NCBI GenBank assembly: GCA_029976805.1
Contig: JAPOLY010000002.1
Coordinates: 23,502-87,501, forward strand
Direction of reading: 5' to 3'
DNA from: a bacterium
Lineage (GTDB): Bacteria; Planctomycetota; UBA8108; UBA1146
Length of the DNA stretch: 64,000 nucleotides
Of the stretch, positions 32,547 through 60,381 are shown piece by piece. The notes under the pieces are model-generated. The model saw only the letters and a program-made list of their open reading frames with translations. It was not told the origin of the DNA and searched no databases. The position numbers were made by a program, and so were the translations under genes. Positions within the stretch are counted from its first letter, which is position 1. Each line of letters begins with the position of its first letter.

Positions 32547-33787
32547 TAGAAAACCCTCTTCTCACTGGCTTCGTAGGTGACTTCACCATCGATCACCGTC
32601 ATCTCGCAGGATGAACGGGGGTCGATCGGATCACCGGTCCAAAGGCAAAAATCTGCGTCGAGGCCCACAGTGATGCTGCCGAGACGATGGTCCATCATCA
32701 GTGCTTCCGCGGGGATTTTAGTGATCCCCTTCAGCGCCTCGTAGGGTTTCCAGCCGTAGTAGCAGGCCATGCTCGCCTGATAGGCCAACTCTTCCTGCGG
32801 CACCACCGGAGAGTCAGTATTGATACCCAGCTTGCGGACACCCCCCTGCCACCAGCGGGCAGCATTGCCCATCAGTCGTCTCTGGGTGCGATCGTAGTGG
32901 AGCTGTCTCGGTCCATTGATGGTGTAAATCGACTCGTCCGCGTTGACGAGCGGAGCGACTTTCCAGGCGTCGAAAGTGGAGTGATCCAGCACCGTGCGGA
33001 TGTTGAATTCTCCTGCAACCATTTTGACTGTGGTCATCAGCACCTGGTAAATCTGAGTGTGAACCGAAGCCACCGTTTCACGACGGAACAGCGGTCGAAA
33101 CTCTTCCCAGTTCAGATTGAAGGCGGGCTCGACCTCGAGGCGACCTTCTTCCCACTCGGTTCTGGCCAAGTGGTAATCCCGCGCTTTGCGCAGGGTCTGA
33201 CGGGTGTTGAAGTTCATGAAGGAACGTCCCACACCGTAGAAGTAACGCTCCGGGTTTCCTGCCTGGGCGATCTTCAGGGATCCGGGAGCCTTGATGACGG
33301 ATTCCGCAACAGTGCCCTCGGAAGTCTTCATGATCGTACCGAAGCCGGACATGTTGTTTCCGCTACCCGGGATCGTCAGCACCGTCGTCACACCACCGGC
33401 GCGAGCGCGAATCATCTCCGGGTTGTCGGGGACGATGGATTCCAGCGTGCGCAATCCGGGGTTTGTCAGATAGACGTAATCATGAAGGTCTGGAGAGCCG
33501 CCTCCGGTGTGGTTGTGACACTCGACAAAGCCGGGAACCAGCCACAGGTTCTTGTGCTCAAAGACCTTTGCTCCGGGGGGGATCATGATCTCTTTCGATT
33601 TCCCCACCGCCGTGATCTTACCATTTTCGACGATCACGGTTGCGTTGTTGATCACACGCTCTTCGGTATCAAAGGTCACCACCTTGCCGACCTTGAATGC
33701 CAGGGTCTCGGCGGTTGCATCCGCAGAAAGACATACGAGGAACAGGAAGGCCAGACTGAAAATCCATTGATTGGCAGAGATCCTCAT
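32546..33787 (-). CDS. Secreted amidohydrolase (COG1228-like), the only paralog with an intact HxH motif (position 6 of 8)
   Basis: Signal peptide. PGFVECHNHTGG (HxH), later His residues (ASVHTQ, VLDHST), GINTDSPV (Asp) and C-terminal GSITVGLDADFCLWTGDP. Confidence 0.85.
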   Translation of the reverse strand: MRISANQWIFSLAFLFLVCLSADATAETLAFKVGKVVTFDTEERVINNATVIVENGKITAVGKSKEIMIPPGAKVFEHKNLWLVPGFVECHNHTGGGSPDLHDYVYLTNPGLRTLESIVPDNPEMIRARAGGVTTVLTIPGSGNNMSGFGTIMKTSEGTVAESVIKAPGSLKIAQAGNPERYFYGVGRSFMNFNTRQTLRKARDYHLARTEWEEGRLEVEPAFNLNWEEFRPLFRRETVASVHTQIYQVLMTTVKMVAGEFNIRTVLDHSTFDAWKVAPLVNADESIYTINGPRQLHYDRTQRRLMGNAARWWQGGVRKLGINTDSPVVPQEELAYQASMACYYGWKPYEALKGITKIPAEALMMDHRLGSITVGLDADFCLWTGDPIDPRSSCEMTVIDGEVTYEASEKRVF

Positions 33788-36507: not shown

Positions 36508-36508
36508 C

Positions 36509-38050: not shown

Positions 38051-38101
38051 CGATTACCTCGGTTTCAATGCTTCCTCCGCAGTGCGGGTGGAAGGTTTAG
38101 C

Positions 38102-39631: not shown

Positions 39632-40821
39632 TTTCTGACGCTCTCCAATTCATTCACTTTTCCGGGTTCGGCAACCCGCATTCCCTGCCCCCCACGCCAG
39701 ACGTGAATCACGCTGGAAGCAGTGTCGAGAGGATCTCCAGAGAAAAGAACCAGGTCCGCTCTCTTGCCTGCGGAAACCTCTCCCGTTTCCAACGCTCCGG
39801 AGACTTTCGCCGGATTGCTGAAGAGGGCTCTGCGGGCAGCGTTGGCATCCATTCCTGCGGAAACTGCCATGGCAGCACTTCCACGGAGGTGATCGGCGGG
39901 ACCTGCCGGAAGTCCACCGGCAAAACTCAATTCCACCCCTTGCTTCGAAGCCCTTACGGCCATCATGAGATGGGCACGGCTTCCACCATCCAACAGAGGT
40001 CCGACGACCATATGCACCGGCTTGGGAAGATCTTTCACGAGATTCAAAGGGGAACGGCCATCTCCACCGGTGTGAATGAAGACCGGAATCGCATCGGCTG
40101 ACCAGGGCAATGCGAGTGCCTGGCGCAAATCGATTCCCTCCGCCACGTACAGGAGGCCCGGATTTTTCAGAGCCTCAGGGCCGGTCTGCATCCAATCTCT
40201 CCAGATGGAGAGCAATGCGGTTCGACTGGTCGGAACCCGGTTCGCAGAAAGAACGGAGTCACCCAATGCCAGCATCATTTTTCCGGATCCCAATCGGGTG
40301 GCCGAAAAATCGCTGTGGCAAAGGAAGGTCGCACTCTTTCCATTGACGACTCCGAGGGGCTGCGCCACCAGAGTGGTGTAGAGCACCCCGTGGTGAGCGG
40401 CGACATCCAGCCACGGATCCGAGGAGTCGAAACTGCTCCCGGCGTCGAGATGATCGTCGACCAGAACGGTTCCGGAGCGCAAGGATCCGGGTTTGCCACG
40501 GGTACCCAGCGCACCCATGAGATCGTGCAATCCCGGGGTCAGGACGGATCCTTCAGGGGCTCGGTGAATATGGTCAAACGCCTTCTCATCGACGGTGGAA
40601 CTGGGCACCAGGGCCTGAATCTTGCCGTCATTGCCGACGATGACCGCCCAGTCCCCCTCCAGATTTCCATCGGGGAGAAGAACCTGTGCACCGGTGATCG
40701 CCACTCCGCTGCCACCGGCGTCTGCCGGGATGGAAAGCGTCAGGGTGAAGAGCAGTGCAAGCCCGAACAGGAACAACCTGTTTCCCGAGTTCGGTTTTTG
40801 ATGGTTGGAGCGATTCAACAT
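39628..40821 (-). CDS. Secreted amidohydrolase-fold protein, degenerate metal site (position 2 of 8)
   Basis: Start MLNRSNHQKP at 40821, overlapping the upstream stop (TAATG). PGLHDLMGALG replaces HxH. GEVSAGKRADLVLFSGDP. ATGA overlap with the next gene. The track ORF extends to 40929. Confidence 0.7.
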   Translation of the reverse strand: MLNRSNHQKPNSGNRLFLFGLALLFTLTLSIPADAGGSGVAITGAQVLLPDGNLEGDWAVIVGNDGKIQALVPSSTVDEKAFDHIHRAPEGSVLTPGLHDLMGALGTRGKPGSLRSGTVLVDDHLDAGSSFDSSDPWLDVAAHHGVLYTTLVAQPLGVVNGKSATFLCHSDFSATRLGSGKMMLALGDSVLSANRVPTSRTALLSIWRDWMQTGPEALKNPGLLYVAEGIDLRQALALPWSADAIPVFIHTGGDGRSPLNLVKDLPKPVHMVVGPLLDGGSRAHLMMAVRASKQGVELSFAGGLPAGPADHLRGSAAMAVSAGMDANAARRALFSNPAKVSGALETGEVSAGKRADLVLFSGDPLDTASSVIHVWRGGQGMRVAEPGKVNELESVRK

Positions 40822-42134
40822 TAGAAGCGCCCTCCTCTCGCCGCAGAGGCTTCTTGCCAGACCACTTCCCCGTCGATGATCACCTTTACAGGGCGAGCTG
40901 CCGGCTGGGTCGCCGGGTTGGCACTCCACAGAACAATGTGATTCTGTCCGGGTCTAAGGGTATCCCGACGACTGCGAAGACCTCTGAGGTTCGTCGACTG
41001 GGCACTCGTGAGCGCAGCCTCCCCCGTCATCTTGCGGGTCATTCGCCAGAGGCCTTCTCCTGAGCCTCCACTGCCGACCACCCAATCCATTTCATGCTCC
41101 TCCAGGAGGGCAGCGAGATTGGAAGATCTTCGGGGAGTCGTACTCAGAACTCCAGGACCGGAGACCGCCATCGACGTCGCTGGCTGGTCGATAATGAAGG
41201 AAAGGTCATCCAGTTTTTTCAAGTCATCGATCACCAGAGCCGCTTCATCCGCCCCATGAATGATCGCGTCCAACTGGAACATTTGAATCAACTCGCAGGC
41301 ATTCAAAAGATCTGCAGATCGCCGGGCGGTGATCAAAACCGGAATCTTGTGGTCCAGTGCACGAAGGAGGATATCACTGTCCTCATCGAGATCGGGACGA
41401 CGGGGCTTTTCGGGTGCCTTCTTCTCCTCGTCGTCCTTTTTGCCATCTTCGGAAGACTTTTCGCCCTCCCCTTCACCGTCCTTGGCCTGTTCCTCGACCC
41501 ACTTCTTCAGCTCCTCGAGGTACTCCTCCAGGTCTGATTCATAACTGTCGAGGCTGTCGCGACGGTCACGGGCATTGTTGAACTGCTCGACGATTTTGTC
41601 GAAAGCACGAATGCGCGCGGAAGGGGCTCCCGATGAAAGATTGATGCAAAGGGCGGCCTCTTCCTCGATCAGGACGCCATGCCCGCCACCTTCCGCCTCT
41701 TCCAGTGAAACCCAGCAGGATCTGCCAGAGATACCGCTGCCGCGAACCGGAACCAGATGGACCCGGGTCACGCCTGACGAGAGGACCATTTCGATATCAT
41801 CCTTGGAAAAGCGATCGAAGCCGTCCCAACTCCACTGCTTGGCCTCTCCCGATCCGCCCACTGGAAGGGTGAGAACGGAAGCGTGATCCACGAGGCCTGC
41901 TGTGGCAAAAAGCCCCTGGGCCGGGATTTTTTTAGACATGAGTGGCACGTCTGCAGTCTGGGAGATTTCGGCGATCCTGCCGCCACGGATCATGATCGTC
42001 AGATCCTCGAGAGTCCCGCCACGCGTCGGGGCGCTGACGCCCTCCAGAACAACCGGACGTTGAAACAACTGACCCTCTACCCAACCCGGGTAGAACAGAA
42101 GGATCAGCATCAGCCACACTCTGGGTGAAGACAT
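40821..42134 (-). CDS. Secreted amidohydrolase-fold protein, degenerate metal site (position 1 of 8)
   Basis: Probable start MSSPRVWLMLILLFYPGWVEG at 42134. AGLVDHASVL replaces HxH. Charged insert EELKKWVEEQAKDGEGEGEKSSEDGKKDDEEKKAPEK. The track ORF extends to 42239. Confidence 0.65.
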   Translation of the reverse strand: MSSPRVWLMLILLFYPGWVEGQLFQRPVVLEGVSAPTRGGTLEDLTIMIRGGRIAEISQTADVPLMSKKIPAQGLFATAGLVDHASVLTLPVGGSGEAKQWSWDGFDRFSKDDIEMVLSSGVTRVHLVPVRGSGISGRSCWVSLEEAEGGGHGVLIEEEAALCINLSSGAPSARIRAFDKIVEQFNNARDRRDSLDSYESDLEEYLEELKKWVEEQAKDGEGEGEKSSEDGKKDDEEKKAPEKPRRPDLDEDSDILLRALDHKIPVLITARRSADLLNACELIQMFQLDAIIHGADEAALVIDDLKKLDDLSFIIDQPATSMAVSGPGVLSTTPRRSSNLAALLEEHEMDWVVGSGGSGEGLWRMTRKMTGEAALTSAQSTNLRGLRSRRDTLRPGQNHIVLWSANPATQPAARPVKVIIDGEVVWQEASAARGGRF

Positions 42135-42682
42135 ATGCTTGGCTCTTTCCTCATAAGCCGTTGCCCTCGCAACGACTCGGCGCTCATTCACACTGATTCG
42201 ATCAAAGTCATGTGATGCCTGCGGTTGACAAGCCTGCACCCGGACACAGCCGTTGAGCAGACTCGTTATTACTTGGGGCAGACTTCATTCCTGCAGATGG
42301 TGAAACTCCCTCATAACAGGGAACAGATCCTCCACCTGTAGAAGCCGGTACACAGACCGGTATCCCTCTCGTCAAACAATCAGGGCTGATCGCGCGGGGA
42401 TTCCCCCCAGTTCGCTGAATACCCCTGCTGAAATCGTCTATCTCTATTCCCCCACCTCTGGTGAGCTCCAAAGGGATTGGAGAGCTCCAAAGGTATCCCC
42501 GCGATTCATGTCCCCGAATTTCCCGCAGGTCGAGGTACAGAATAACCACCAGAATCCACCCATGAAACCTGTAACGTCCGCCGATCTGCTCGCATCGGAG
42601 CAATTCCGGGTGCAAACTCGGACTGATGTGACAGAGCAGCGAAAGCCCCTGAAACCGCTTTCCAGACTGTCAGCCAGAAAGG

Positions 42683-46182: not shown

Positions 46183-47139
46183 ATGAAGTCAGCTCTGACA
46201 GGGATCCTGTTTCTGTGCCTTTTGATGTTCGTTGCGACCCCCTTCCTTTCTGCGACCGAAAAGGCCGCCGAAGGTCTTTCCTGGGAAACGGATATCTCCG
46301 TTGCCATGGAGAAGGCCAAAAAGGAGGGCAAGGACATTCTGATCAACTTCACCGGCAGTGACTGGTGCGGCTGGTGCAAAAAACTCGACGCCGAGGTTTT
46401 CTCCAAGCCGGACTTTGATGCCACTGCAGGCAAGCAGTTCGTCTACCTTTACCTGGATTTCCCCCAGGCTGAAGAGCTGAAAGCCAAAGTGGTTGACCCC
46501 AAAATGAATGACAAGCATCGCGATGAGATGGGAGTCAACGGGTACCCCACCATCATGCTCGCCGATGCCATGATGCGCCCTTACGGTCGTACCGGATACC
46601 TTCCGGGTGGACCCGAAGCTTATCTCAAGAATCTCGAGGAGTTGCGTACCGAAGGAGACAAGCTGAGGAAGATGCTTGTCGCTGAAGATGCGGAAGCCGG
46701 CAAGATGCTCGCTGACGTTTTTGGCGTGTTGAGCAAAAACGAGCTTCTCGGATACCCCGGATATTCCAAGTATCTGGAGATGGCTGAGAAATCTGACAAC
46801 GCCGATCTGAAAAAATTGGTCGCCGCCCACAAGTCCAACATGCGTCTCAAAGAGTTGATGAACACCCGCGAGCCGGACTTCCCGACACTGGTCGCTTTCC
46901 TGACCGAAAACCCGGAGGCCAGCGGACCGGATGCCCTCAATGCTCTCTGGTTTGCCCACCAGTGGTTGGCTGAGCAAGATCGCAGGGACGAGGCCAAAGC
47001 TTTCCTGAATCGCATGCTCAAAGATCCTCTGGTCGCCGACAATCCTCAGGGCAAGCAGATGATCGAACAGGCCATCCACAATCTGGACCATCCTGACGGA
47101 AACCATGACCACGACGGTGACGGGGTTCCCGACCACTAG
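46183..47139 (+). CDS. Secreted thioredoxin-family protein with a His/Asp-rich C-terminal tail
   Basis: Signal peptide MKSALTGILFLCLLMFVATPFLSA. FTGSDWCGWCKKLD (CxxC). Tail HPDGNHDHDGDGVPDH. The mirror ORF 46189..47136 on the minus strand has no recognisable motif. Confidence 0.8.
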   Translation: MKSALTGILFLCLLMFVATPFLSATEKAAEGLSWETDISVAMEKAKKEGKDILINFTGSDWCGWCKKLDAEVFSKPDFDATAGKQFVYLYLDFPQAEELKAKVVDPKMNDKHRDEMGVNGYPTIMLADAMMRPYGRTGYLPGGPEAYLKNLEELRTEGDKLRKMLVAEDAEAGKMLADVFGVLSKNELLGYPGYSKYLEMAEKSDNADLKKLVAAHKSNMRLKELMNTREPDFPTLVAFLTENPEASGPDALNALWFAHQWLAEQDRRDEAKAFLNRMLKDPLVADNPQGKQMIEQAIHNLDHPDGNHDHDGDGVPDH

Positions 47140-47263: not shown

Positions 47264-49171
47264 TTGCGCCCAGTCGTTATGATCGTGAGCAGAAGAGGGA
47301 GCAATACTTTGGCCAGGGACACCAAGCCCAAACCAGGATGTGAAGGATTTCGCCGATCCGGCAACCGGACCCCCGGTCGTTCGGGAAAGCGACGGGCATG
47401 GGTTCTCGGATTTGTCCATCTCCTCATCGCAGGCCATCTGATTCACTGGTGGGTCACGGGGCGCACCCTCTCTCCTATCGAACCTTCAGAGAGTATGTAC
47501 ACTCTCGAAAATGGTCAGGTGAATGCGGGCTTCATCTTTTTTGTGGTCGCCATCTTGTCGACCGCAGTACTGGGGCGGTGGTTCTGTGGCTGGGCATGTC
47601 ACATGGTGGCACTCCAGGACCTGTGTGGCTGGATGATGAAAAAAGTCGGAATCACGCCCCGCCCCTTCCGCAGCCGCCTGCTCTCCCTGATCCCCTTCAT
47701 TCTCGCCTTCTACATGTTTCTCTGGCCCACCTTCAAACGGGAAGTGTTTCCCATCATTGAATCTTTCCTTCCGGGAGTGACCTCGTGGTTCGCCCCCGTG
47801 AAAGCATGGCCGGGATTCAGCAACCACCTTTTCGTGGAAGATTTCTGGGCCACATTCCCTTCGGTCATCGTCTCGATTCCATTCTTTCTGATCTGCGGGT
47901 TCGTCGTGGTCTACCTTCTGGGGGCCAAAGGTTTCTGTACTTATGGGTGCCCCTATGGAGCCTTCTTCAACATTGCTGACCGTGTCTCACCGATGCGCAT
48001 CGTCGCAGACATGTCGAAGTGTGAATCGTGTGGATTGTGCACGGCAAACTGCACCTCCAATGTTCAGATCTCCCGTGAAATCCGGGTTCATGAGCAGGTG
48101 GTCGATCCGGGCTGCATGAAGTGCCTCGACTGCGTGGATGTCTGCCCCAACAGCGTGCTTTCATTTGGTTTGGGGAAGCCAGGACTCTTGGCGAGCAAAG
48201 GTCCTGAAGCAAAAAAAATCGCCCGAAAATCTCAGCTCTCCTGGGGTGGTGAACTGGCACTCGCATTGGTGTTTGCCCTGAGCTGGTTCAGTTGGCGTGG
48301 AGTCTATGAGCAAGTCCCCCTGCTGATGGCCACCGGGATCGCACTGATGGTGACGTTTCTGAGTTGGAAAGCAGCTCAGTTGTTGAAGGAGAAGGATGTT
48401 TCCCTGCAGCAACAGCCCCTTCGGAGATCCGGGAGGTGGACTTCATCCGGCAAGTGGGTTCTCGTCACGGCTTTCCTCTGCCTGACGATGACGGCCTCTG
48501 CAGGGAAATCCCGTTGGGACCTCCAGCAGTCCTCCCAATGGATGGAGAAAGCGGCGGTCAATCTGGATCAGGTCTTTTTGCCGGGGAAACCTCCGGTCCC
48601 AGCCGAAGCCATCTCCGCGGCTGAAAGTGCGCTCGGGTTTTTACACTCACAACTCTCTGTCACCCGGGGTGGATTCGCCCTCTTTGAGCCGGAGGGGACC
48701 CGCCTTGAAGAACGACTCGGTTACATGAGCGCCGTGTCCGGTGATCTCGCTGAGGCCAAAAGATGGTGGAGCAGCGCTCTCGAAGAACCTCTCGAACCGA
48801 GCCACGATCTGGTGTTGCGTTTTGGCCAACTGATTGAAAAGCAGGAGGGCCCGAAGGCATTGGCCGACTGGCTGAACTCCTCCAGAGAGCGCTGGGGGTT
48901 AATCCCTCCCCTTGTCACTCTTCGGGGAATTCTGGCGCAGAAACAGGCTACTGCCTCTGTTCAGAATGGAAGCTACTTTGCTGCGGCCCTGCACTTGGAA
49001 GCCCTGATCCCCTGGATCGGACCCAACCCCGGCTTGCTCGATGACATGGGTCGACTGCTCGACTCAGCGGTCCCGAGTCAGGAAGTTGACGAGATGCGTC
49101 AACGCCTCAGCCAACTTCGATCCAACAACGTTATTCCGGGATCCACTTCAGGGACGGTTCAGGAAGACTGA
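47264..49171 (+). CDS. Polytopic 4Fe-4S binding membrane protein (CcoG/FixG/NapH-like N-part) with a long C-terminal helical domain of unknown function
   Basis: RWFCGWACHMVALQDL, GFCTYGCPYGAFFN, CESCGLCTANCTS and CMKCLDCVDVCPN. Start uncertain. Confidence 0.7.
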   Translation: MRPVVMIVSRRGSNTLARDTKPKPGCEGFRRSGNRTPGRSGKRRAWVLGFVHLLIAGHLIHWWVTGRTLSPIEPSESMYTLENGQVNAGFIFFVVAILSTAVLGRWFCGWACHMVALQDLCGWMMKKVGITPRPFRSRLLSLIPFILAFYMFLWPTFKREVFPIIESFLPGVTSWFAPVKAWPGFSNHLFVEDFWATFPSVIVSIPFFLICGFVVVYLLGAKGFCTYGCPYGAFFNIADRVSPMRIVADMSKCESCGLCTANCTSNVQISREIRVHEQVVDPGCMKCLDCVDVCPNSVLSFGLGKPGLLASKGPEAKKIARKSQLSWGGELALALVFALSWFSWRGVYEQVPLLMATGIALMVTFLSWKAAQLLKEKDVSLQQQPLRRSGRWTSSGKWVLVTAFLCLTMTASAGKSRWDLQQSSQWMEKAAVNLDQVFLPGKPPVPAEAISAAESALGFLHSQLSVTRGGFALFEPEGTRLEERLGYMSAVSGDLAEAKRWWSSALEEPLEPSHDLVLRFGQLIEKQEGPKALADWLNSSRERWGLIPPLVTLRGILAQKQATASVQNGSYFAAALHLEALIPWIGPNPGLLDDMGRLLDSAVPSQEVDEMRQRLSQLRSNNVIPGSTSGTVQED

Positions 49172-52515: not shown

Positions 52516-52532
52516 TCGCACCTCCTCCTCTT

Positions 52533-52548
52533 GTTTGGGTACCCAAAC
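52533..52548. promoter_or_regulatory. Perfect 16-bp palindrome GTTTGGGTACCCAAAC, candidate operator (copy 1 of 3)
   Basis: Lies 18 nt upstream of the DtxR-family regulator start, in the intergenic region shared with divergent feoA. Related copies at 58921..58936 and 60308..60323. Confidence 0.55.
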
Positions 52549-52705
52549 GGGTTGATGAGCACTCAAACAGCATGTAAAAATAGGCCTGTTGAGCACTGTG
52601 TTCCTGGATCTGCAGATTAATGCCCGATTCACGTAAGGACAAGTGTTCGTAAAAGTTGCGAGGCTCACTTGAGCCTTCATCTCAGGACTTTCGAACTGGA
52701 GATCC

Positions 52706-53008
52706 ATGCAAACCGGCAACCCCAGCCCTGAAAAGAGTGTGCGACCCTCGCTGGAACAGGCGGCTCTCAGCACGTCTGCTCAGGTCAGATCACTCTTCGA
52801 CATGAAATTGGGAGATCGGGGCCGCCTGGTAGAAGAGTCGATCCCCCAGAATCAGCGCCCCCTCCTGGAAGCGATGGGCATGTGCGGGGATTGTGAACTC
52901 CGGGTTTGCCACAATTCCGGTTCCTGTATTCTGGAGATCGACGGACAAAGGGTAGGGCTCAGCGAAGAGATCGCCTCTTCCCTTCGGGTTCTCCCCCTGG
53001 ACAGTTGA
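52706..53008 (+). CDS. feoA: FeoA family protein
   Basis: FeoA/SH3-like pattern LFDMKLGDRGRLVEE...LLEAMGMCGDCELRV...ILEIDGQRVGLSEEIASSLRV. Confidence 0.75.
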   Translation: MQTGNPSPEKSVRPSLEQAALSTSAQVRSLFDMKLGDRGRLVEESIPQNQRPLLEAMGMCGDCELRVCHNSGSCILEIDGQRVGLSEEIASSLRVLPLDS

Positions 53009-53133
53009 TCCAGATTTCCTTCCTTGAACACGCTTTCCTTTCACAAATCTGATTCATTGTTTTTACAACCGCAAAGTAGTCTACATTCCGTAGTCTGCAT
53101 TCCAGTGTTGATTTTCAGGGTTGAACAGGGTGG

Positions 53134-53823
53134 GTGAAGACTGACATGACCCGATTCTACAAGCAGTCCGGATTTACCCTTGCTCGCTCCAACACCTCCA
53201 CCCGTTGGCTCCTAACGCTCTTTTTTCTGACCGTCATCGCTGGCTGTGTCGTTGCTGCAGTTCAGTACTCCAGCAGTGCAGGAGGATTCTCCGTCGACAA
53301 TGCCCGAGAATGGGTTCTGGGCAATGAGGACGACCTCGATGCTGAAGAATTGATGTCCGAAAAAACTCCCAGGGAACTGCTCTCCTTTATTCATGACCAT
53401 ATCTTCTCTCTGGGAATGTTGCTCTTCGTTGTCCTGCACCTGTTTGAACTGACTCCCTGGTCGACTGGGGTCAAGGTCACCCTTTCCTTCACAGGCTTTG
53501 GAAGTCTTGTCGGGTTGCTCTTCTCACCCCTCGCCATTGCTTCCGGAAGTTCAATGGCACTCTTCACCCAGATCATCGGTGGAAGCCTTCTGTTGCTCAG
53601 TCTGGTACTGGGATCTTTGGCGTGCCTCGACGAGCTGTGGTGGGCCCCTCGCCGAAGAAATCGAGCGGGCAAGGCCGATCCCCCGGCATCAAATCCGCTC
53701 TTTCCGGCCAAAGGCTCGGGAAAGCCTGACTCGGACAACCCTGACTCGGGAAGCTGCCCCATGGGCTTTGGATCGGATCAAAAAAATCCCGGGAAACCTT
53801 CCTCAGAAGATTCCCCGGGATAA
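53134..53823 (+). CDS. Membrane protein of unknown function (about 4 TM helices, Pro/Gly/Ser-rich C-tail)
   Basis: ORF with hydrophobic helices, directly downstream of feoA. No motif recognised. Confidence 0.5.
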   Translation: MKTDMTRFYKQSGFTLARSNTSTRWLLTLFFLTVIAGCVVAAVQYSSSAGGFSVDNAREWVLGNEDDLDAEELMSEKTPRELLSFIHDHIFSLGMLLFVVLHLFELTPWSTGVKVTLSFTGFGSLVGLLFSPLAIASGSSMALFTQIIGGSLLLLSLVLGSLACLDELWWAPRRRNRAGKADPPASNPLFPAKGSGKPDSDNPDSGSCPMGFGSDQKNPGKPSSEDSPG

Positions 53824-53849
53824 TCCATGACGCATGGGAATGCGTGGCT

Positions 53850-55019
53850 TTACTTACTCTTTTCAGTGGCCTGTTCGGCTTTCGCTTCCTGAACCAGCAA
53901 CTCGATGGCGTCATCCATTTCTTTGCCACGGACATCCTTGTAACGAATGATTCCCTTGGCGTCGATCAGGTAGATCGTCGGCCAACCGGTCACGTTCCAA
54001 CGCGTTGAAATCGGTCCGCCCGGACTCCCATCGTAAAAACTGAGCCAGTTGATCTTGTTTTTCTCGACCACTTCACGGGCTTTTTCAATGGAGGAATCCG
54101 AGTTGATTCCGACGATGGCAAAAGGATCTGCAGAGTATTTCTCCACGAGCGACCGCTCGTGTGGGTACATGGCCCTGCAGGGACCTCACCAATCACCCCA
54201 GAAATCAAGCAGGATCACCTTGCCTCGGAAAGAGGACAGCTGCATCAGCTTGCCGGAGATCTCCTTGCCGATGATTTCGGGTGCGACACAACCGACCTGA
54301 AGATTCTTCATTTCGAAAAGGTCGCCTTTGACCTTGTCGGCATAAACGGATCTCCCGTAAGAGACATCTCCATACTCATCCTGGACCCTTTTGAGCAGAG
54401 CCAGGCCCTCACTGCGGGTTTCTTCCTTCTTGCCCTTGATCTTGGCAAGAGAATAACAGCCGGCGGCCTGAACTTCCCTGTGAGGAGAGTCACTGACGAC
54501 CACGCTGAGAAAATCGCACATGGCTGGCGCCATGGCCTCCGAGCAGTAGTGGGAGTAGCGCAAGACGTCGGCCAGTTTCTCGTTCTTCAGGTAGTGAGTC
54601 TTGAGCGCCGACATGGCCTTTTCAGCCATCCAACCGGCAGATTCACTTCTGCCAGCCAAAGCCAGCATTTGGTCGCAAGCACCGAGGGCTGCTTCTGTCC
54701 CCGCATACTTGTCGATGGTTTTGAGCATCTCCGGGCCGACGACCATTACTGGATCGAGTGCCGGATCGAGTTCGATCTTCTCCATCTCTTTATCGCTGAG
54801 ACCTTTTTCCCGAGCCTCTGTCAGGGGCTTGTAATAAGCCTCCTGAGCCTTATTCATTTTTTTGTTGATCTCTTCAAATGCCTTTTCAGCGGCCGCTTCC
54901 ATCTTTTCGTCTGCGACCCCCACTGAAACGGGGGAATAAGAGAAAGCCACTGCCGGACCCGACAGCATAAAAGCGATTACGAGACAAACGGTCCCGTATC
55001 GACGAAGACGAGGAATCAT
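53850..55019 (-). CDS. TlpA/ResA-like thiol-disulfide oxidoreductase, candidate selenoprotein (in-frame UGA at 54186..54188 read as Sec in a UxxC redox motif)
   Basis: Track ORFs 54186..55070 and 53850..54170 are in the same frame. Read-through gives ...GKVILLDFWGDW-U-GPCRAMYPHERSLVEKYSADPFAIVGINSD...GWPTIYLIDAKG, a canonical thioredoxin-fold W-C-G-P-C context with TGA at the first Cys. Neither half is a complete fold alone. Signal peptide MIPRLRRYGTVCLVIAFMLSGPAVAFS from 55019. Confidence 0.75.
54128..54185 (-). promoter_or_regulatory. SECIS-like stem-loop immediately 3' of the in-frame UGA
   Basis: In the mRNA, the lower stem pairs CUGCAGGG with CUCUGCAG. The upper stem CACGAGC/GCUCGUG (7 bp) closes a GGUC apical loop that starts 32 nt after the UGA. 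Confidence 0.6.
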
Positions 55020-55112
55020 GGGATACCCTTCCAATTTTGACCTTCCGGTCGATCCACATCCGTGGATCAAACTGAAAACAAAGATACCACAGTGAAATAA
55101 ATTGGCAGGGTC

Positions 55113-55232
55113 CTATTTGGAGCAGGGTCCACAATCTCCTCCGGACGCGCGGCTCCGCTTCCGGACCAGCAACAGGAGAGCGATAACTGCGAGGAGAGTC
55201 ACGATCCAGAATTGGGGATCGGATTCAAACAT
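55113..55232 (-). CDS. FeoB-associated Cys-rich small membrane protein (39 aa; below the ORF-track length cutoff)
   Basis: MFESDPQFWIVTLLAVIALLLLVRKRSRASGGDCGPCSK: one TM helix, a basic stretch and a C-terminal Cys pair. Starts 7 nt after the feoB stop. Confidence 0.6.
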   Translation of the reverse strand: MFESDPQFWIVTLLAVIALLLLVRKRSRASGGDCGPCSK

Positions 55233-55238
55233 GGATCC

Positions 55239-57182
55239 TCACTCCCACCCGAGAAGCAGAATCAGCATGCGCATGGCTGCAGCCATGCCCCAAGCCAGAA
55301 GGCTCATCCATGTCAACTGAAGGATCGCCCACTTCCATGCCCCGGACTCCTTACGAGTGACCGCAAGCGTGGGCAGGCATTGCATTGCCAGCACGAAAAA
55401 GACCAACAATCCAGCAGCCGACGAGGGCGTCAAAAGAGGCGAACCATCATCGCGCCTGGAGTTTCTGATCTTGTCCATCAAAGGTTCCGCCTCTGCCTCT
55501 TCACCGGTTCCCAATAGAACACTGGTTGAGGACACAAAAACTTCCCTGGCGGCAAAACTGGCCATGATCGAAATCGACAACTGCCAATCGGCTCCGATGG
55601 GTGCAAACACCGGCTCCACACTCTTGCCGATACGACCCAGGTAGGAAGCGGCTGTACTCTCTCGAGAAGCGAGAGAATCCGCTTCCTCGACGAGCGCTTC
55701 GGCTTCCTCTACAGATTCCACCGCTTCAGCTTTGGCTCGCAAATCGGCGACTGCTGAACTCTCCGTACTCTTGGGGTAGGTTCCCAACCACCAGAGAACA
55801 ATACACATCAGCAGAATGACGGTTCCCGCATTTTTCAGGAAGATCCAACCACGCTGGCAGGCGATTTTCAGGGAGTCCACCAATGACGGTCGCTGAAAGG
55901 GAGGCAGCTCGAGAACCAGATCGGGACTCGGCCCTGGCAACAGGAAACGCCGAACTATCCAGGCGCTGAAGACCGCTGCCAATGCTCCCAGCAGGTAACA
56001 CCCGGCAAAAGCCAATCCGGCAATGAAGGGATTTTCAGGAAAGAGCAACCCCACCAGTAATTGGTAAACCGGCAATCTGGCGGCGCAAGAGAGGAATGGA
56101 GCAACCAGAATCGCTGCCAGACGATCCTTGCGATCCGGAATCAAACGCGTGCACAAAATTCCCGGAATGGCACAGGCGTGACTCGACAACAAGGGAACGA
56201 AGGAATGCCCCGGCAGGCCGAACGGCCTCAGCCAACGATCCGCAACCAATGCGGCACGGGCCAGATAACCGGTTTCCTCCAAAATACTGATGAGGAAAAA
56301 CAGCAGCAAAACCTGAGGCAGGAAAATCAGTGTACCCGATACCCCACCGATGATTCCCTCGACGACGAGACTTCTGACCTCGCCTTCCGGCATGCTTGTA
56401 GAAACCCAATCCGCGATCAAAGCAAAGGTATTGTCGAGCCATTCCATGGGAATCTGGGCCAACCAGAACACACATCCAAAGAGCAGGCTCATGATGATGA
56501 AAAAGGTCGTCAGCCCCCAGAAGGGATGTAGCAGGAATCGATCGAGGCGATCCTCTTTTTCCCTTCTCTTTCGGGCCTCCTCTGGTCGAACCGGGCGTGT
56601 CACCGCTGCGACAGTATCGTCGACCCATTTCGAGTCGAGAACCGTATCCTGGGGACTCACGGGCCGCTCTGCCGCTGCCAGAATAAATTCTTTGAGGCCT
56701 GCATTTCGGTGAGCATGCCGATGTGCCAGTTCCAATACAGGGACCTGAAGCATCTCCTCCAAGCGCTGGAAGTCGATCTCAACGCCCCTGAGTCGTGCTT
56801 CATCGGTTCGGGTCACAATGACCGCATTGGGCGTTCCTTTTTGCATGCACTCGGCCAACAGGTTCATGTTTCTGCGCAAGCTGACCGCATCGATCACACT
56901 GACGATCAAGTCGGACTTTTGGGGGGCACCCAAATGTTGTTGGCAATGACGGGATTCGGGAAGGTCCAGTTGAAGCCCGTAGCATCCGGGGAGATCCGTG
57001 ACCTCTACATCGATGTCTCCCCAGCGATCCTTACCCACCAGCGATTCTGCAGTGATCCCGGGAAAATTGGAGACTCTGGCATTCCCCGTCACAAGGGCAT
57101 TGAAGAGGGTGGATTTTCCAACGTTGGGATTACCGGTAACAGAGATGCGGAGTGTTTTTCCGGATTGTTCTTGGTTCTTCAC
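55239..57182 (-). CDS. feoB: Ferrous iron transport protein B
   Basis: N-terminal G-domain GNPNVGKSTLFNAL and DLPG, followed by a polytopic membrane domain. About 650 aa. Confidence 0.9.
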   Translation of the reverse strand: MKNQEQSGKTLRISVTGNPNVGKSTLFNALVTGNARVSNFPGITAESLVGKDRWGDIDVEVTDLPGCYGLQLDLPESRHCQQHLGAPQKSDLIVSVIDAVSLRRNMNLLAECMQKGTPNAVIVTRTDEARLRGVEIDFQRLEEMLQVPVLELAHRHAHRNAGLKEFILAAAERPVSPQDTVLDSKWVDDTVAAVTRPVRPEEARKRREKEDRLDRFLLHPFWGLTTFFIIMSLLFGCVFWLAQIPMEWLDNTFALIADWVSTSMPEGEVRSLVVEGIIGGVSGTLIFLPQVLLLFFLISILEETGYLARAALVADRWLRPFGLPGHSFVPLLSSHACAIPGILCTRLIPDRKDRLAAILVAPFLSCAARLPVYQLLVGLLFPENPFIAGLAFAGCYLLGALAAVFSAWIVRRFLLPGPSPDLVLELPPFQRPSLVDSLKIACQRGWIFLKNAGTVILLMCIVLWWLGTYPKSTESSAVADLRAKAEAVESVEEAEALVEEADSLASRESTAASYLGRIGKSVEPVFAPIGADWQLSISIMASFAAREVFVSSTSVLLGTGEEAEAEPLMDKIRNSRRDDGSPLLTPSSAAGLLVFFVLAMQCLPTLAVTRKESGAWKWAILQLTWMSLLAWGMAAAMRMLILLLGWE

Positions 57183-57225
57183 TTACGCCCCCTGAAAAAG
57201 CACTGCTCAATCAGCCAGAAGAGTC

Positions 57226-58842
57226 TCAGCGCTGAGTGCGTCCGACAAAACGCGGCTGGCTCTCACCCTCAATCAGAATCACTGCGGAAGCATTCGGGCA
57301 GTTATTCAGGATCGATCGTGCCCCCTCTTGTCCGAGAAGAGCAACAGTGGTGCTCAAGGCATCCGCCTCGGTGGCACTGCTGGAAAGCACTGAAGTGGTC
57401 AGAATACGTCCTTGCGAAGAATTGTCGAGAAGTTGCACCAGGTGATCCCCGCGTTCATAGCACGCGGTGGTCGCCAGTGAGGAGCGAATCAGTGCAAGCT
57501 CATGAAGGACAGATTTGCCATCCCGGGGGTCGTGGATCCCCACAGCCCATGATTTTTCACCGGGGGGCGGATCGAGAGCCAGCAGTTGGCCTCCGAAATC
57601 GAGAAGAGCACGGGAGCAACCGTGAGACTCGAGTACGACGGCCGCACGATCGAGGGCATAACCCTTGCCGATTCCTCCCAAGTCGAGAATCAGACCGGGA
57701 CGCAACAGAGTGATCGTCTCCTTTTCCCGATCCACCTTGACGCTGCGGAAGCCATCCTTCTTCAGAGTCAAATCGAAGGCTCCACCACTCTCCCTGGACA
57801 TGGCGAGTGCTTTTTCGACGACCTCGATGGTTTCCCGGGCAACCTTGACCGGCTCTCCCACAGGTGCCGCTTCTACCCTCAAGACGTCGCTCCCCGCTTT
57901 CCAGCGGCTGTGCAACGATTCCAGGCGCTCTACTTCAGAATAAGCGGCTTCCACGGCCTTGAGTGCCTGCTCTCCGTAGACCTCCATCTTGAGGACGGTT
58001 CCCATGGCGGGACGAGCCCTCTCGACAGGTGCATCTTTATCTCCCAACCCTGATCTGAGCACAGAAACTTCCTCAGGGCCCGCAGCAGAAACCGGTTCCG
58101 CCGAGGCGGGTTCACCGTAAGCCAGAGATGAGCCGGAAAGAGATTGCCAAACCAGATCCAGATTCTGTTTCTGCGAAACCTCAACAGTCGCCATCGATCT
58201 TCGCACTGCGCGAACAGCCGCGCGGGCAGAGAGAGTCGCTCCTGAGAGATTACGGATTCCGCGGTGGAGCTTCAGCGACTTGCCGAGTTTTTTATTTCTG
58301 AACTGCCGGGTGAATCGCGGAGATTCAATCTCTTGGCCGATGTGCTCTCGGTAAACAAGAACCTGAAGGTCGAGGACACGAAGATCATTGTCGAGAGCAA
58401 CAAAGAAAGTGATGGGACGATACTTACCGACCTCATCGAGGATCACCACAGATCCCAGTCTGTTGCCTTGGGGAGAGGTGACCCGGAACAGGGTGGTCTG
58501 TTGGTCCCTGGTTCTCACCCTGCTGATCTCAACGATCTTCTTCTTCACTTCCCCTTCGACTGGAACATGACAGCGCTCCACGTGTACATCCGCACTCCAC
58601 AGATCTGCGATCAGATCCCTGCTGAAGAAGCCGGAGGTCTTTTCGGGGAGCGTCGTCTCAGTCGACACACCCGTCTCCGAAGAGACGGATTCAGATGTAC
58701 CTGGCCCAAGGGCCAGTGCCTGAGAAGAAACCGACAGAACCAACAGCAAACCCGCAACCAACCCGCGGTACCGGAAGCAGACCCGCGACTCGCGGATCTG
58801 TTCGGAATGCGTGCTGAAATCACTGCAGGAAACGGGGCTCAT
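57226..58842 (-). CDS. Secreted fusion protein: FMN-binding domain (RnfG/NqrC/NosR type) plus ApbE-like FAD:protein FMN transferase
   Basis: Signal segment RYRGLVAGLLLVLSVSSQALA. FMN_bind-like segment ending NLSGATLSARAAVRAVRRSM (SGAT flavinylation motif). ApbE-like MGTVLKMEVYG, FDLT, DLGGIGKGYALDRAA and ATEADALSTTV. The start at 58842 is preferred because the track TTG start at 58938 lies inside palindrome copy 2. Confidence 0.75.
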   Translation of the reverse strand: MSPVSCSDFSTHSEQIRESRVCFRYRGLVAGLLLVLSVSSQALALGPGTSESVSSETGVSTETTLPEKTSGFFSRDLIADLWSADVHVERCHVPVEGEVKKKIVEISRVRTRDQQTTLFRVTSPQGNRLGSVVILDEVGKYRPITFFVALDNDLRVLDLQVLVYREHIGQEIESPRFTRQFRNKKLGKSLKLHRGIRNLSGATLSARAAVRAVRRSMATVEVSQKQNLDLVWQSLSGSSLAYGEPASAEPVSAAGPEEVSVLRSGLGDKDAPVERARPAMGTVLKMEVYGEQALKAVEAAYSEVERLESLHSRWKAGSDVLRVEAAPVGEPVKVARETIEVVEKALAMSRESGGAFDLTLKKDGFRSVKVDREKETITLLRPGLILDLGGIGKGYALDRAAVVLESHGCSRALLDFGGQLLALDPPPGEKSWAVGIHDPRDGKSVLHELALIRSSLATTACYERGDHLVQLLDNSSQGRILTTSVLSSSATEADALSTTVALLGQEGARSILNNCPNASAVILIEGESQPRFVGRTQR

Positions 58843-58920
58843 CGACTTCTTCCTCTGATTGAAAGGGACGGTTTCGGGTTCCTTTTGCGGACCCGCCGAA
58901 AATAGAACTGATTTGGTACC

Positions 58921-58936
58921 GTTTGGCAACCCAAAC
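58921..58936. promoter_or_regulatory. Near-perfect palindrome GTTTGGCAACCCAAAC, candidate operator (copy 2 of 3)
   Basis: 79 nt upstream of the FMN-binding/ApbE start at 58842. Same 7-2-7 architecture as copies 1 and 3. Confidence 0.5.
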
Positions 58937-59060
58937 AAATGACTTCTTTTACTGCTTTTGATCAGATTTACCCAAATTCAGCCTTCAGACTCTCATTGCC
59001 CATATTTTGACAAGGATCCCCACTCCCACCCCGAAGGGCGAGAGTAGGGGAAAAAAGGGC

Positions 59061-60215
59061 TTAGAAGTAAGTCGCTGCTGAGAAGATGAAGGTTCCGTCG
59101 GGGTCCTCTGAACCCTCGATCGACTCCTGCTCGTAGTCGAATTTGAGAACCGTCTCATCCGTCGGTCGCATGTTGAAGCCGTAAGTCATACGGCTGGTCA
59201 CCGGGCCGGTGAGATCCTGCTCTTCCCAACGGATCGTCACAGCACAAGAGGAGTCATCCCCCCACAGGTTGGTGACGAAATCCGGGAAGAACTTTTTGGA
59301 GACTTCGATGGAAGTTGCGCTGATATCGTCGGGAACTCCACCGGCGATCGCCGCTGCGTCGCGGTCGATGGAGACATTCCCCAACTCAAAGTTCAGGATC
59401 GTCGCCCCCACTGCCTCAACCCAGCTGCCCAGATCGGTCGTAATATCGATGACGGTAATACTCAGATCGAGGTCACCGGCGTCATCCCAGGGACCAGTCC
59501 AATTTGAGAATCCAATTTCGGTTCCGAGCACAGGGCTGTAAGTGAAACGCCCCACAAAACTGGCGGGACGATCCCCTTTATTGGTTTTCAGGCTGGGACG
59601 TCCTCCACGAATACCGCTGGAAGTGTTGAAGTTGTACCCACCGGCACCGTCTTCACCCTGGAAACCGTTGACGGCATAGAACTCCATTCCCCAAGTTCCA
59701 TCATCCGCCCCCCACACTCCTCCCAAACCGGCACTGGTCATCGTTGAAGGAACGATAGAGCGGGCCACGAAAGGGCGGTTCGTCAACTGGCGCATGGGCG
59801 AGTCGTGGTAAAGGTTGGTGGAACCCAATGGGATCAGAATCGCTCCCGATCTGAGGGTCCAACCACCAAAATCCACATCGGCATAGGCGTATTCAACTTT
59901 GGTTTCACCATCACCTCTGGGAGCGCTGGCACCTCCATATTCGAATTCGATTTCGGCGGAGAAACTCACATTTTCGCTGATGTTCGCATCCAGCATTGGA
60001 ACCAGTCGATGCTGTTTGAAATCGAGACGATCACTGTTCATGAACAACTCGAGATCCAGGTATCCCCCCAGGCGAATATCCCGATCGCCTTCTGCCGCAG
60101 GGCGATTGTCGTAACGGTCAACCTGAGCTTCGAGAGCTCCAGAACTGGACAGAGTCAAAGCCAGTACACAGACCAAAAGTGTGATTCTGGTGCAGATCAC
60201 TTCGTTCGAAGGCAT
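59061..60215 (-). CDS. Outer-membrane beta-barrel porin-like protein
   Basis: Signal peptide ending SSGALEAQ, alternating amphipathic strands rich in G/Y/F/T, and a C-terminal aromatic residue (...SAATYF). Confidence 0.55.
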   Translation of the reverse strand: MPSNEVICTRITLLVCVLALTLSSSGALEAQVDRYDNRPAAEGDRDIRLGGYLDLELFMNSDRLDFKQHRLVPMLDANISENVSFSAEIEFEYGGASAPRGDGETKVEYAYADVDFGGWTLRSGAILIPLGSTNLYHDSPMRQLTNRPFVARSIVPSTMTSAGLGGVWGADDGTWGMEFYAVNGFQGEDGAGGYNFNTSSGIRGGRPSLKTNKGDRPASFVGRFTYSPVLGTEIGFSNWTGPWDDAGDLDLSITVIDITTDLGSWVEAVGATILNFELGNVSIDRDAAAIAGGVPDDISATSIEVSKKFFPDFVTNLWGDDSSCAVTIRWEEQDLTGPVTSRMTYGFNMRPTDETVLKFDYEQESIEGSEDPDGTFIFSAATYF

Positions 60216-60307
60216 TCTTTCGTTTCCTCTCTGAGCGGGGGCGAAATGGAACTATCGCACCTCAAGTAAAATCAGCATTCTGGCGTTGGTTATATAGCCA
60301 CTCTTGT

Positions 60308-60323
60308 GTTTGGCAAGCCAAAC
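60308..60323. promoter_or_regulatory. Palindrome GTTTGGCAAGCCAAAC, candidate operator (copy 3 of 3)
   Basis: Perfect 7-bp arms with a 2-bp spacer. 93 nt upstream of the porin start and 59 nt upstream of the divergent methyltransferase start. Confidence 0.5.
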
Positions 60324-60381
60324 AATTGAAATTGTCGCCAAAATACCTGAATTTTGTCAATTTCCCGCAAACCTCCATAGG

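Follow-up and report, generated by a model that had tools for sequence, protein, structure and literature searches.

Flavin-based extracellular electron transfer in Listeria has biochemical support, and in Vibrio cholerae VciB reduces Fe(III) and thereby feeds the Feo system. Bioinformatic analyses have placed flavinylated FMN_bind proteins in iron assimilation together with VIT1 and P19/FTR1 (PMC8238504, PMC11334425), and ferrous-iron clusters of the P19/FTR1 type carry either an FMN_bind gene or a gene for a thioredoxin-like protein (PMC8238504). Furthermore, sifE and apbE mutants of B. breve are impaired under iron chelation (PMC5449479), and periplasmic reduction by FsrB feeds FeoAB in B. 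japonicum (PMC10760861). Here we describe a gene island in a 64,000-nucleotide stretch of a Planctomycetota genome (GTDB UBA8108, UBA1146; GenBank assembly GCA_029976805.1, contig JAPOLY010000002.1, positions 23,502 to 87,501), hereafter the window. The island encodes a porin-like outer membrane protein, a secreted fusion of an FMN_bind domain with an ApbE-type flavin transferase, FeoA and FeoB, the four-helix membrane protein Aq_1264_TM (PF27139), a TlpA-like selenoprotein, a DtxR/MntR-family repressor and a ferritin-like protein. We read it, with a probability of roughly 0.55, as an island that serves reductive iron acquisition in a marine planctomycete and is repressed by metal.

In the proposed scheme, the 16-strand porin would admit small Fe(III) species into the periplasm, where the secreted fusion would transfer FMN from FAD onto its own Thr203 (numbering of the 538-aa protein), either in cis or between molecules, and the covalently bound flavin would hand electrons to Fe(III). 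The electrons would cross the inner membrane via Aq_1264_TM, whose HxH...13...H arrangement on transmembrane helix (TM) 2 may bind haem b in a dimer or, alternatively, a metal centre. FeoB together with FeoA would import the resulting Fe(II), the ferritin-like protein would store iron, and the DtxR-type repressor would shut all three transcription units via a shared palindrome. The TlpA-like selenoprotein and a 39-aa peptide ending in CGPC may be lineage-specific accessories, probably in thiol/selenol redox maintenance or protection around FeoB, and the presence of either an FMN_bind or a thioredoxin-like gene in P19/FTR1 clusters offers a parallel; their roles are the least constrained part of the model. 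An initial annotation of the window had likewise proposed a periplasmic ferric reductase feeding FeoB. This proposal is plausible and in part backed by the domains, the modifiable Thr and the feoB, fur, ferritin and TonB neighbours of related loci, but not by a general link to feoB. In addition, its model lacked an electron source, a place for which Aq_1264_TM is put forward in the present analysis, and its set of partners requires revision, as the universally linked ones are the porin and Aq_1264_TM, the latter overlooked on the other strand next to feoA.

Gene content of the window was derived from a listing and translation of open reading frames (ORFs) followed by Pfam and NCBIfam scans (Table 1). 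ORF calls and profile scans agree with the gene order given in the initial annotation, that is, a minus-strand run of porin, FMN_bind–ApbE fusion, feoB, 39-aa CxxC peptide and TlpA-like UGA-containing protein. The span assigned to this module (55113-60215) holds four of these genes, but the selenoprotein gene lies outside it. The accompanying remark that the operon lacks feoA is literally true, but feoA is located 2 kb off within the same conserved island, where feoA and the Aq_1264_TM gene form an operon convergent to the feoB operon and directly beyond its terminator. The gene for the repressor (dtxR) is divergent from feoA, and the start of the ferritin-like gene overlaps the dtxR stop by 8 nt. 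Genes of the porin–feoB operon are packed tightly, with a strong terminator at the operon end. FeoB passes the TIGR00437 equivalog cut-off (382 vs. 315.65 bits), with FeoB_N, two Gate domains and FeoB_C all matched, and FeoA, encoded on the strand opposite to the feoB operon, scores 25.0 bits against PF04023 (cut-off 23, scored on 52706-53005). No FMN riboswitch, other riboswitch or known RNA in the island matched Rfam at gathering thresholds.

The longest ORF of the fusion gene (57226-58938) encodes 570 aa, and since the orthologues P0001 and P0002 have 538 aa, translation probably starts at MSPV (58842). The N-terminus contains a signal-peptide-like h-region followed by A-L-A, which suggests an extracytoplasmic protein. 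Both domain assignments of the initial annotation stand. The FMN_bind domain passes PF04205 marginally (23.8 bits, cut-off 22), matches the rnfG subfamily at E=1.3e-7, below that profile's own cut-off, and carries a precomputed PF04205 annotation in most homologues. The ApbE domain (PF02424) scores 149.3 bits against a cut-off of 25.6, and its relatives in the Protein Data Bank (PDB) include TM1553, FmnB and the ApbE proteins of T. pallidum, E. coli and V. cholerae (E 4e-19 to 1e-9). When 30 homologues with identities as low as 29% were aligned, the predicted flavinylated Thr (codon 58234-58236; T235 in the 570-aa ORF, T203 in the 538-aa protein) lies in the motif R-N-L-S-G-A-T-L-S, in which G233, A234, T235 and S237 are invariant and the Asn at position -5 is nearly so. 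The motif thereby contains [S/T]-G-A-[S/T] with its acceptor residue (S232-G-A-T235), and the modifiable Thr postulated earlier is conserved along with the catalytic residues of ApbE. The ApbE half keeps MGT, DLGGIGKGYALD, S/T491, H499 and D526-A-L-S-T; residue 491 is Thr here and Ser in most homologues, H499 is nearly invariant and D526 invariant. These three positions were located by alignment to Listeria FmnB and TM1553 and are taken as the catalytic residues on the basis of this alignment and the Ser-His-Asp centre described for such enzymes (PMC12052999); the reference triads are S241/H257/D285 in V. cholerae ApbE and S257/H273/D301 in FmnB, together with the GGIGKG FAD/Mg region. Self-flavinylation of the fusion is plausible. 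As a separate observation, a GAGA-N5-TCTC palindrome (GAGATTCAATCTC) occurs at 58320-58332 inside the FMN_bind coding region, with further copies in the window at 8270, 24358 and 26330.

The porin-like protein remains below the cut-off for Pfam Porin_O_P (18.7 vs. 20.9 bits). Its AlphaFold2 model (35 homologues, pLDDT 87.8) is a 16-strand barrel, for which Foldseek returned OmpF, OmpC, Omp32 and OprP (E 5e-12 to 1e-10, TM scores 0.55-0.6). The protein thus fits the general porins, a class defined by a 16-strand barrel whose loop 3 folds inwards, a signal peptide and an aromatic residue at the C-terminus. An MtrB-type porin–cytochrome conduit, in which about 26 strands surround a redox protein, was considered and ruled out for this OmpF/OprP-like protein of 384 aa and 16 strands.

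The distribution of the island genes was examined in two samples. The first comprised 80 ApbE-anchored loci, one genome per species, plus locus L001, and was probed with the island proteins. The second, independent of the first, was anchored on Aq_1264_TM by searching metagenome contigs with a degenerate nucleotide pattern that encodes T-H-F-H-x-F-S-M-P, and yielded at least 120 loci; of the 120 among the matches listed, to which all counts from this sample refer, 117 encode a member of the PF27139 family. The whole island is kept in five loci of marine Planctomycetota (L001-L005) and rearranged in a sixth (L007), at 50-96% identity. Beyond this clade, only the porin, FMN_bind, ApbE and Aq_1264_TM stay together, the last of these detected by tblastn or a profile search. 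At least six phyla have this core cassette, which is conserved in Planctomycetota, Dadabacteria, Nitrospiria, Gemmatimonadota, Elusimicrobiota, Acidobacteriota and delta-proteobacteria. A single fusion gene encodes FMN_bind and ApbE in Planctomycetota, Dadabacteria and one metagenome-assembled genome of Thermodesulfobacteriota, whereas separate genes, frequently arranged as apbE–porin–FMN_bind, are present in Acidobacteriota, Elusimicrobiota, Nitrospiria and Gemmatimonadota. In four distant planctomycete genomes whose neighbouring genes are annotated with Pfam, porin, fusion and Aq_1264_TM make up a compact operon amid unrelated genes. In the Aq_1264_TM-anchored loci, apbE is usually divergent from porin–FMN_bind–Aq_1264_TM; the family-specific FMN_bind gene lies immediately upstream of the Aq_1264_TM gene in 94/117, and a porin was found in 58/117 and apbE in 20/117, a shortfall that stems largely from short contigs. 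By this distribution, the ancestral unit is porin, FMN_bind, ApbE (fused or split) and Aq_1264_TM, and not the fusion together with feoB. The feoB, 39-aa peptide and tlpA-like genes have thus been inserted between the fusion and Aq_1264_TM in the window lineage, where the Aq_1264_TM gene has also been inverted and joined to feoA.

Genes of iron metabolism recur around the cassette. An adjacent and co-directional feoB was found in 9/36 cassette loci of the ApbE-anchored sample compared with 0/44 loci with ApbE only (Fisher p=4e-4), and these feoB-adjacent cassettes belong to Planctomycetota, Thermodesulfobacteriota, Elusimicrobiota and Polarisedimenticolia. A fur-family gene is adjacent in eight ApbE-anchored loci, consisting of 7 of the 36 cassette loci and one locus in which no porin was detected (L041), and in 8/117 Aq_1264_TM-anchored loci. 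An unbiased Pfam census of the cassette neighbourhood, covering about 200 ORFs in 32 loci outside the window clade, ranked FeoB first, followed by FUR, Fe_dep_repr and ABC-3. A second census, of 150 neighbours from 35 long Aq_1264_TM-anchored loci, returned Ferritin in 11, TonB_C in 9, ABC_tran with TOBE_2 in 6, ExbD in 5 and ExbB in 4 loci. Spot checks placed ferritin and exbB–exbD–tonB directly beside the cassette, and in one Elusimicrobiota locus ferritin follows immediately after Aq_1264_TM. With the E. coli Fur-box consensus, 8/31 loci of the ApbE-anchored sample had matches at an empirical p<=0.05 and a ninth at 0.065. Furthermore, seven loci (L006, L009, L010, L015, L020, L042 and L056) have a Fur-box-like palindrome, (A/C)TTGAGA-N5-TCTCAA(T/G), upstream of the cassette; this pattern, derived post hoc from Planctomycetota cassettes, has 8 matches in 15 kb vs. 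3 in 492 kb. In our reading of the gene neighbourhoods, iron homeostasis is the sole functional theme that recurs next to the cassette, and the window island shows it in its most explicit form. Separately, HD/HD_5 domain genes were the commonest neighbours in the soil and sediment metagenomes of the second sample (L086-L205; 13/35 long loci), and a DNA topoisomerase gene was a neighbour in eight of these long loci, probably due to synteny among relatives.

Aq_1264_TM was assigned to PF27139 via its homologues, as all 19 close homologues, and likewise the neighbours of the distant fusions, carry this annotation in precomputed form. An exhaustive profile search of 1.84 billion representatives recovered no more than 191 clusters of this family at 50% identity. 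Across 60 diverse members (225-aa numbering), Gly59, His83 and His85 are invariant and Glu61 and Trp165 nearly so. The H-x-H sits at the periplasmic end of TM2, and a third His follows exactly 13 residues past His85 in 47/60 members, including every cassette-linked member examined. An H-x-H followed, within one helix, by another His at a distance of 13 residues is a spacing typical of bis-haem membrane proteins. The conserved His are three in number and all on one helix, in contrast to the four central haem-ligating His of DUF4405/FezC/MsrQ/PepSY-type proteins, and haem ligation by Aq_1264_TM would therefore need a dimer. Such an H-13-H arrangement would allow two bis-His haems in an Aq_1264_TM homodimer, by analogy with the homodimer proposed for FezC (PMC11334425). 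No profile match of Aq_1264_TM to the flavinylation-associated b cytochromes of the DUF4405, FezC, MsrQ or PepSY type was obtained. Four of the 191 clusters, from other organisms, are Aq_1264_TM–ApbE fusion proteins (P0183, P0225, P0274 and P0261), in which the N-terminal four helices are connected to a complete ApbE by a fifth TM segment or a lipobox, a linker that fits an N-in/C-in four-helix topology of Aq_1264_TM. Based on the near-obligate linkage to FMN_bind and ApbE, the ApbE fusions and the conserved His pattern, Aq_1264_TM is likely the membrane electron conduit, and it may instead hold a metal centre or serve in cofactor supply.

The regulator scores above the cut-offs for both Fe_dep_repress and Fe_dep_repr_C. 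Its C-K-I-E-H segment, which fits the Cys-x-x-Glu-His primary-site ligands of DtxR/IdeR repressors, aligns with E99-G-I-E102-H103 of B. subtilis MntR, with the Cys at the position of DtxR Cys102, and it lacks the Asp8/Glu11 pair of MntR. A Cys ligand without the Asp8/Glu11 pair represents the iron-type ligand set of DtxR/MntR proteins. The palindrome TGTTTGGS-NN-SCCAAACA occurs three times in the 64-kb window vs. 0.08 expected, and all three copies fall in promoter regions of the island; the orthologous loci L002-L005 have the copy at the porin promoter in the corresponding position. Because the palindrome is shared and its positions are conserved, the porin, feoA–Aq_1264_TM and dtxR–ferritin operons look like one regulon.

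The organism is common in seawater metagenomes, and contigs from four marine metatranscriptomes match the island at >=99% identity. Their coverage is uneven and interrupted by gaps, a pattern that speaks against carry-over of DNA. Individual RNA contigs span the fusion/feoB junction (57086-57364), the junction of feoB with the 39-aa peptide gene (55214-55583) and feoA plus the start of the Aq_1264_TM gene (52603-53195), and another covers the porin–fusion intergenic region including the second palindrome copy (58631-58982). Co-transcription of the minus-strand genes, as assumed previously, is thus borne out for fusion, feoB and the peptide gene, while no contig bridges from feoB to the tlpA-like gene. 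Independently of this, contig depth for the tlpA-like gene (54384-55053, 53814-54333) was above that for feoB or the fusion.

The active site of the TlpA-like protein reads W-U-G-P-C, and its TGA is kept in 7/7 orthologues with 58-98% amino acid identity. A hairpin with a 7-bp stem, CACGAGC-GGUC-GCUCGUG, the loop of which starts 31 nt past the UGA, is identical in all seven. In a metatranscriptome contig of a variant strain, synonymous changes occur two and three codons past the TGA while the TGA itself is kept, and distant homologues (L022, L023, L037) have Cys forms (WCDTC, WCESC). The joint conservation of UGA and hairpin is the pattern that a bacterial selenocysteine insertion sequence (bSECIS) would predict, and the protein is a probable selenoprotein. 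The local fold of the hairpin is not unusually stable (z = -1.1) and has no Rfam match, and no selA, selB, selD or tRNA-Sec gene is present in the 64-kb window. The N-terminal ~210 aa (54390-55020) are helical and match no Pfam or NCBIfam family; as a side observation, residues 106-204 give the sole PDB match of this domain, a weak and perhaps fortuitous one to bacterioferritin 9qq4 (E=0.017). The 39-aa peptide is conserved in loci L001-L003 and has one TM segment and C-terminal Cys, with its CGPC on the cytoplasmic C-terminus. Its earlier designation as a FeoB-associated Cys-rich protein agrees with this architecture and with its place directly after feoB, but the match to PF12669 (FeoB_associated) reaches only 17.6 bits, compared with a cut-off of 27 (E=0.0047).

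Several observations on the fusion, transcription, the cassette, Aq_1264_TM and the regulator weigh against the iron-acquisition reading or single steps of it. In the fusion, the flavinylation motif lacks the leading Asp of the canonical D-x-x-[S/T]-G-A-[S/T], position -6 being Arg in the window protein and variable in the family; Asp-to-Ala exchanges in the canonical motif had only minor effects (PMC12052999). ApbE of the window clade has two deletions and no longer contains the D-P-x-T-G stretch that follows the catalytic His in other homologues. At the RNA level, contigs of the tlpA-like gene end near 55045-55053 in two runs, and this gene may therefore have its own internal start. For the cassette, feoB was within reach in 0/117 Aq_1264_TM-anchored loci among the matches listed, E. 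coli-type Fur boxes upstream of the porin were not enriched in this sample (1/40 at p<=0.05), and TTGAGA-N5-TCTCAA was rejected as a general cassette operator, with 0 matches upstream of 45 independent porin genes. Furthermore, many loci are phylogenetically related, so that the counts overstate independence. The tie between the fusion and feoB claimed by the initial annotation accordingly holds for cassettes of four phyla but not for this metagenome set, and as most cassette loci have no feoB within reach, the general role of the cassette need not be Feo-coupled. The lack of feoB and of Fur-box enrichment in the metagenome loci would fit a module of general electron-transfer or redox function in the periplasm that acts on something other than iron (another acceptor, repair or flavin/quinone chemistry) and whose feoAB neighbourhood in the window lineage would reflect only shared regulation or chance; most cassettes standing alone among unrelated genes, HD-domain genes as top neighbours in the metagenome loci and the reductive dehalogenase gene adjoining the Emcibacter example point in the same direction. 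However, feoB lies beside cassettes of four phyla but beside none of the ApbE-only control loci, two independent censuses have ferritin, TonB/ExbBD, fur and DtxR as their recurring theme, and the cassette genes of the window share their operator with dtxR and feoA. We consider a non-iron module possible, though not probable.

As to electron delivery, the third His is absent in 12/60 PF27139 members, and Aq_1264_TM has no PDB match by sequence even at E<=10. A fold search with its model of moderate confidence (pLDDT 66.6) returned only generic four-helix bundles (E>0.8). At E<=1, only 3 of the 60 members gave faint Pfam matches to Ni_hydr_CYTB (cytochrome b561), and the Aq_1264_TM–ApbE fusion P0261 gave such a match as well. 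Electrons might instead be provided by another system, either a DsbD/CcdA–TlpA thiol relay or a NapH/MauN-like membrane polyferredoxin (Fer4_5, 635 aa, 47264-49171, plus strand) encoded a few kb from the island and syntenic in L001, with Aq_1264_TM supplying FAD to the periplasm for ApbE or binding a metal, an arrangement that would not conflict with the iron model. Flavinylation systems are known to have NapH-like partners (PMC8238504). Aq_1264_TM itself has no detectable similarity to known cytochromes, and its tightest link, to ApbE via the fusions, fits cofactor supply too. However, Fer4_5/NapH genes do not recur beside the cassette in the neighbour censuses of other lineages, and the polyferredoxin was consequently rejected as a conserved conduit, whereas Aq_1264_TM is nearly always present and combines the invariant HxH with a His 13 residues on, at the spacing of bis-haem membrane proteins. 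An electron source other than Aq_1264_TM thus appears unlikely.

The regulator scores slightly better as MntR than as DtxR/IdeR, its best NCBIfam (69 bits) and PDB (2h09, 1on1) matches being MntR proteins, and some FeoB homologues transport Mn(II), but an island for manganese or another divalent metal, with an MntR-like repressor, a Feo-type Mn(II) importer and a flavoprotein reducing Mn(III/IV), is highly improbable considering the Cys at the DtxR Cys102/MntR Glu99 position, the missing MntR Asp8/Glu11 pair, the FeoB equivalog match, the ferritin gene translationally coupled to the regulator gene and the fur, TonB and ferritin neighbours elsewhere.

Table 1. Predicted genes, domains and regulatory elements of the island, with positions in the window.
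Feature	Position	Strand	Basis or remark
Porin-like outer membrane protein, 384 aa	59061-60215	-	Signal peptide, C-terminal ...ATYF
FMN_bind–ApbE fusion, secreted, 538 aa from MSPV	57226-58842	-	Pfam and orthologue lengths
FMN_bind (RnfG/NqrC-like) domain of fusion	58195-58425	-	PF04205, rnfG match
ApbE (FAD:protein FMN transferase) domain of fusion	57274-58026	-	Pfam, alignment, PDB relatives
feoB, 647 aa, GTG start, Fe(II) transporter	55239-57182	-	TIGR00437
39-aa single-TM peptide, C-terminal CGPC	55113-55232	-	FeoB-associated Cys-rich type; PF12669 below cut-off
TlpA/ResA-like thioredoxin-fold putative selenoprotein, secreted, WUGPC	53850-55022	-	Profile scans, orthologue comparison
In-frame UGA (54186-54188) and bSECIS-like hairpin (54144-54161)	54144-54188	-	Orthologue comparison
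Hairpin with 16-bp stem and T-tracts, putative bidirectional intrinsic terminator	53786-53821	.	Between convergent tlpA-like and Aq_1264_TM genes
Aq_1264_TM (PF27139), four-helix inner-membrane protein, 225 aa	53146-53823	+	Homologue annotation
feoA, 68 aa	52802-53008	+	PF04023; RNA contig; synteny
Palindrome copy 3, divergent dtxR/feoA promoter region	52532-52549	.	Pattern match; same position in L007
DtxR/MntR-family metal-dependent repressor, 185 aa	51958-52515	-	Pfam and NCBIfam
Ferritin-like protein, 149 aa	51516-51965	-	Pfam and NCBIfam; synteny
Sigma-70-like promoter TTGACA-18-GACAAT, upstream of porin gene	60331-60360	-	Consensus match only, 10/12
Palindrome TGTTTGGCAAGCCAAACA, candidate DtxR-family operator	60307-60324	.	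Just past -10 element of porin promoter
Palindrome copy 2, 1 mismatch, porin/fusion intergenic region	58920-58937	.	Conserved in L004 and L005

Outside the island, the window encodes a secreted thioredoxin-like protein a few kb away (46183-47139, plus strand) and at least eight amidohydrolase (Amidohydro_1/3) paralogues in direct succession, a tandem array of unusual length (29821-42239, minus strand; 29821-31227, 31227-32546, 32546-33787, 33784-36582, 36509-38050, 38102-39631, 39628-40929 and possibly 40821-42239). It also contains a molybdopterin oxidoreductase with an N-terminal Fe4S4 domain (17207-20041, minus strand) and an AddAB-like pair consisting of a PD-(D/E)XK nuclease protein followed by a UvrD-type helicase (21664-27635, plus strand).

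Extending the iron-acquisition reading beyond the window, we tentatively propose, with less confidence than for the island itself, that porin, flavinylated protein and Aq_1264_TM constitute a phylum-spanning, TonB-independent route of reductive iron uptake, in which PF27139 would represent a new class of transmembrane electron carriers (a homodimeric b-type cytochrome or a metal-centre protein) and which, in the marine planctomycete, would be hard-wired to FeoAB, a DtxR regulon and a periplasmic selenocysteine thioredoxin. If true, this would assign a function to an uncharacterised membrane family with 191 clusters at 50% identity and at least 120 metagenome loci, and provide a molecular candidate for siderophore-independent reductive iron uptake in marine and soil heterotrophs in the form of a compact four-gene system amenable to heterologous hosts. 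A selenocysteine-containing periplasmic thioredoxin inside a feo operon would, if confirmed, be an unusual link between selenium and iron. A search of the full-text literature returned no link between FeoB and ApbE or flavinylation, no porin–FMN_bind–ApbE cassette and no mention of Aq_1264. An Emcibacter row in the supplementary table of Méheust et al. lists, without comment, ApbE beside an OprO/P-like porin, FMN_bind and 'K09939' (PMC8238504), which corresponds to the usual layout of the Aq_1264_TM-anchored loci.

Among described systems, the iron clusters of Méheust et al. (2021) and Huang et al. (2024), that is, P19/FTR1 with FMN_bind, and PepSY, MsrQ or DUF4405/FezC cytochromes with VIT1, share with the window locus an FMN_bind/ApbE pair next to a ferrous transporter, a small His-bearing membrane carrier and thioredoxin-like proteins as alternative or extra partners (PMC8238504, PMC11334425). 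In contrast to these clusters, the transporter of the window locus is FeoAB, which is absent from the text of both papers (PMC8238504, PMC11334425), its membrane partner belongs to PF27139 instead of PepSY, MsrQ or DUF4405, the porin is integral, and the flavinylation substrate is fused to ApbE. In the Listeria monocytogenes system (FmnB/ApbE and PplA, EetA/EetB, Ndh2 and demethylmenaquinone, DMK), an ApbE-type transferase likewise flavinylates an extracytosolic FMN_bind protein, which reduces Fe(III) (PMC8238504), and small membrane proteins of unknown mechanism deliver the electrons. The Listeria system differs in being Gram-positive, in lacking a porin, in serving respiration and not uptake and in having transferase and substrate as separate proteins; it contains neither Aq_1264_TM nor Feo, whereas the window locus has no Ndh2 or DMK genes. 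V. cholerae VciB and B. japonicum FsrB share the reduction of Fe(III) outside the cytoplasm followed by Fe(II) uptake via FeoAB (PMC10760861), but are unrelated haem/His membrane reductases and not covalent flavoproteins, with iron entering through TonB receptors and no dedicated porin.

The TlpA-like protein resembles the ResA/TlpA-like selenoproteins of NCBIfam NF041054 (WAxxUGC) in its secreted thioredoxin fold, its putative selenocysteine in the first position of the CxxC motif and its bSECIS-like hairpin, and differs from them in its W-U-G-P-C active site, its additional N-terminal domain and the location of its gene within a feo operon. For an ApbE fused to the protein that it flavinylates, the sole precedent is provided by trypanosomatid fumarate reductases with an ApbE domain at the N-terminus (PMC12052999), which, in contrast to the window protein, are cytosolic or glycosomal, eukaryotic and of another substrate domain and domain order. 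Flavinylated iron reduction and periplasmic reduction feeding Feo are therefore each known, whereas their connection and the PF27139 cassette are previously undescribed, and the most interesting elements that set this locus apart from its described counterparts are the uncharacterised PF27139 partner and the dedicated porin.

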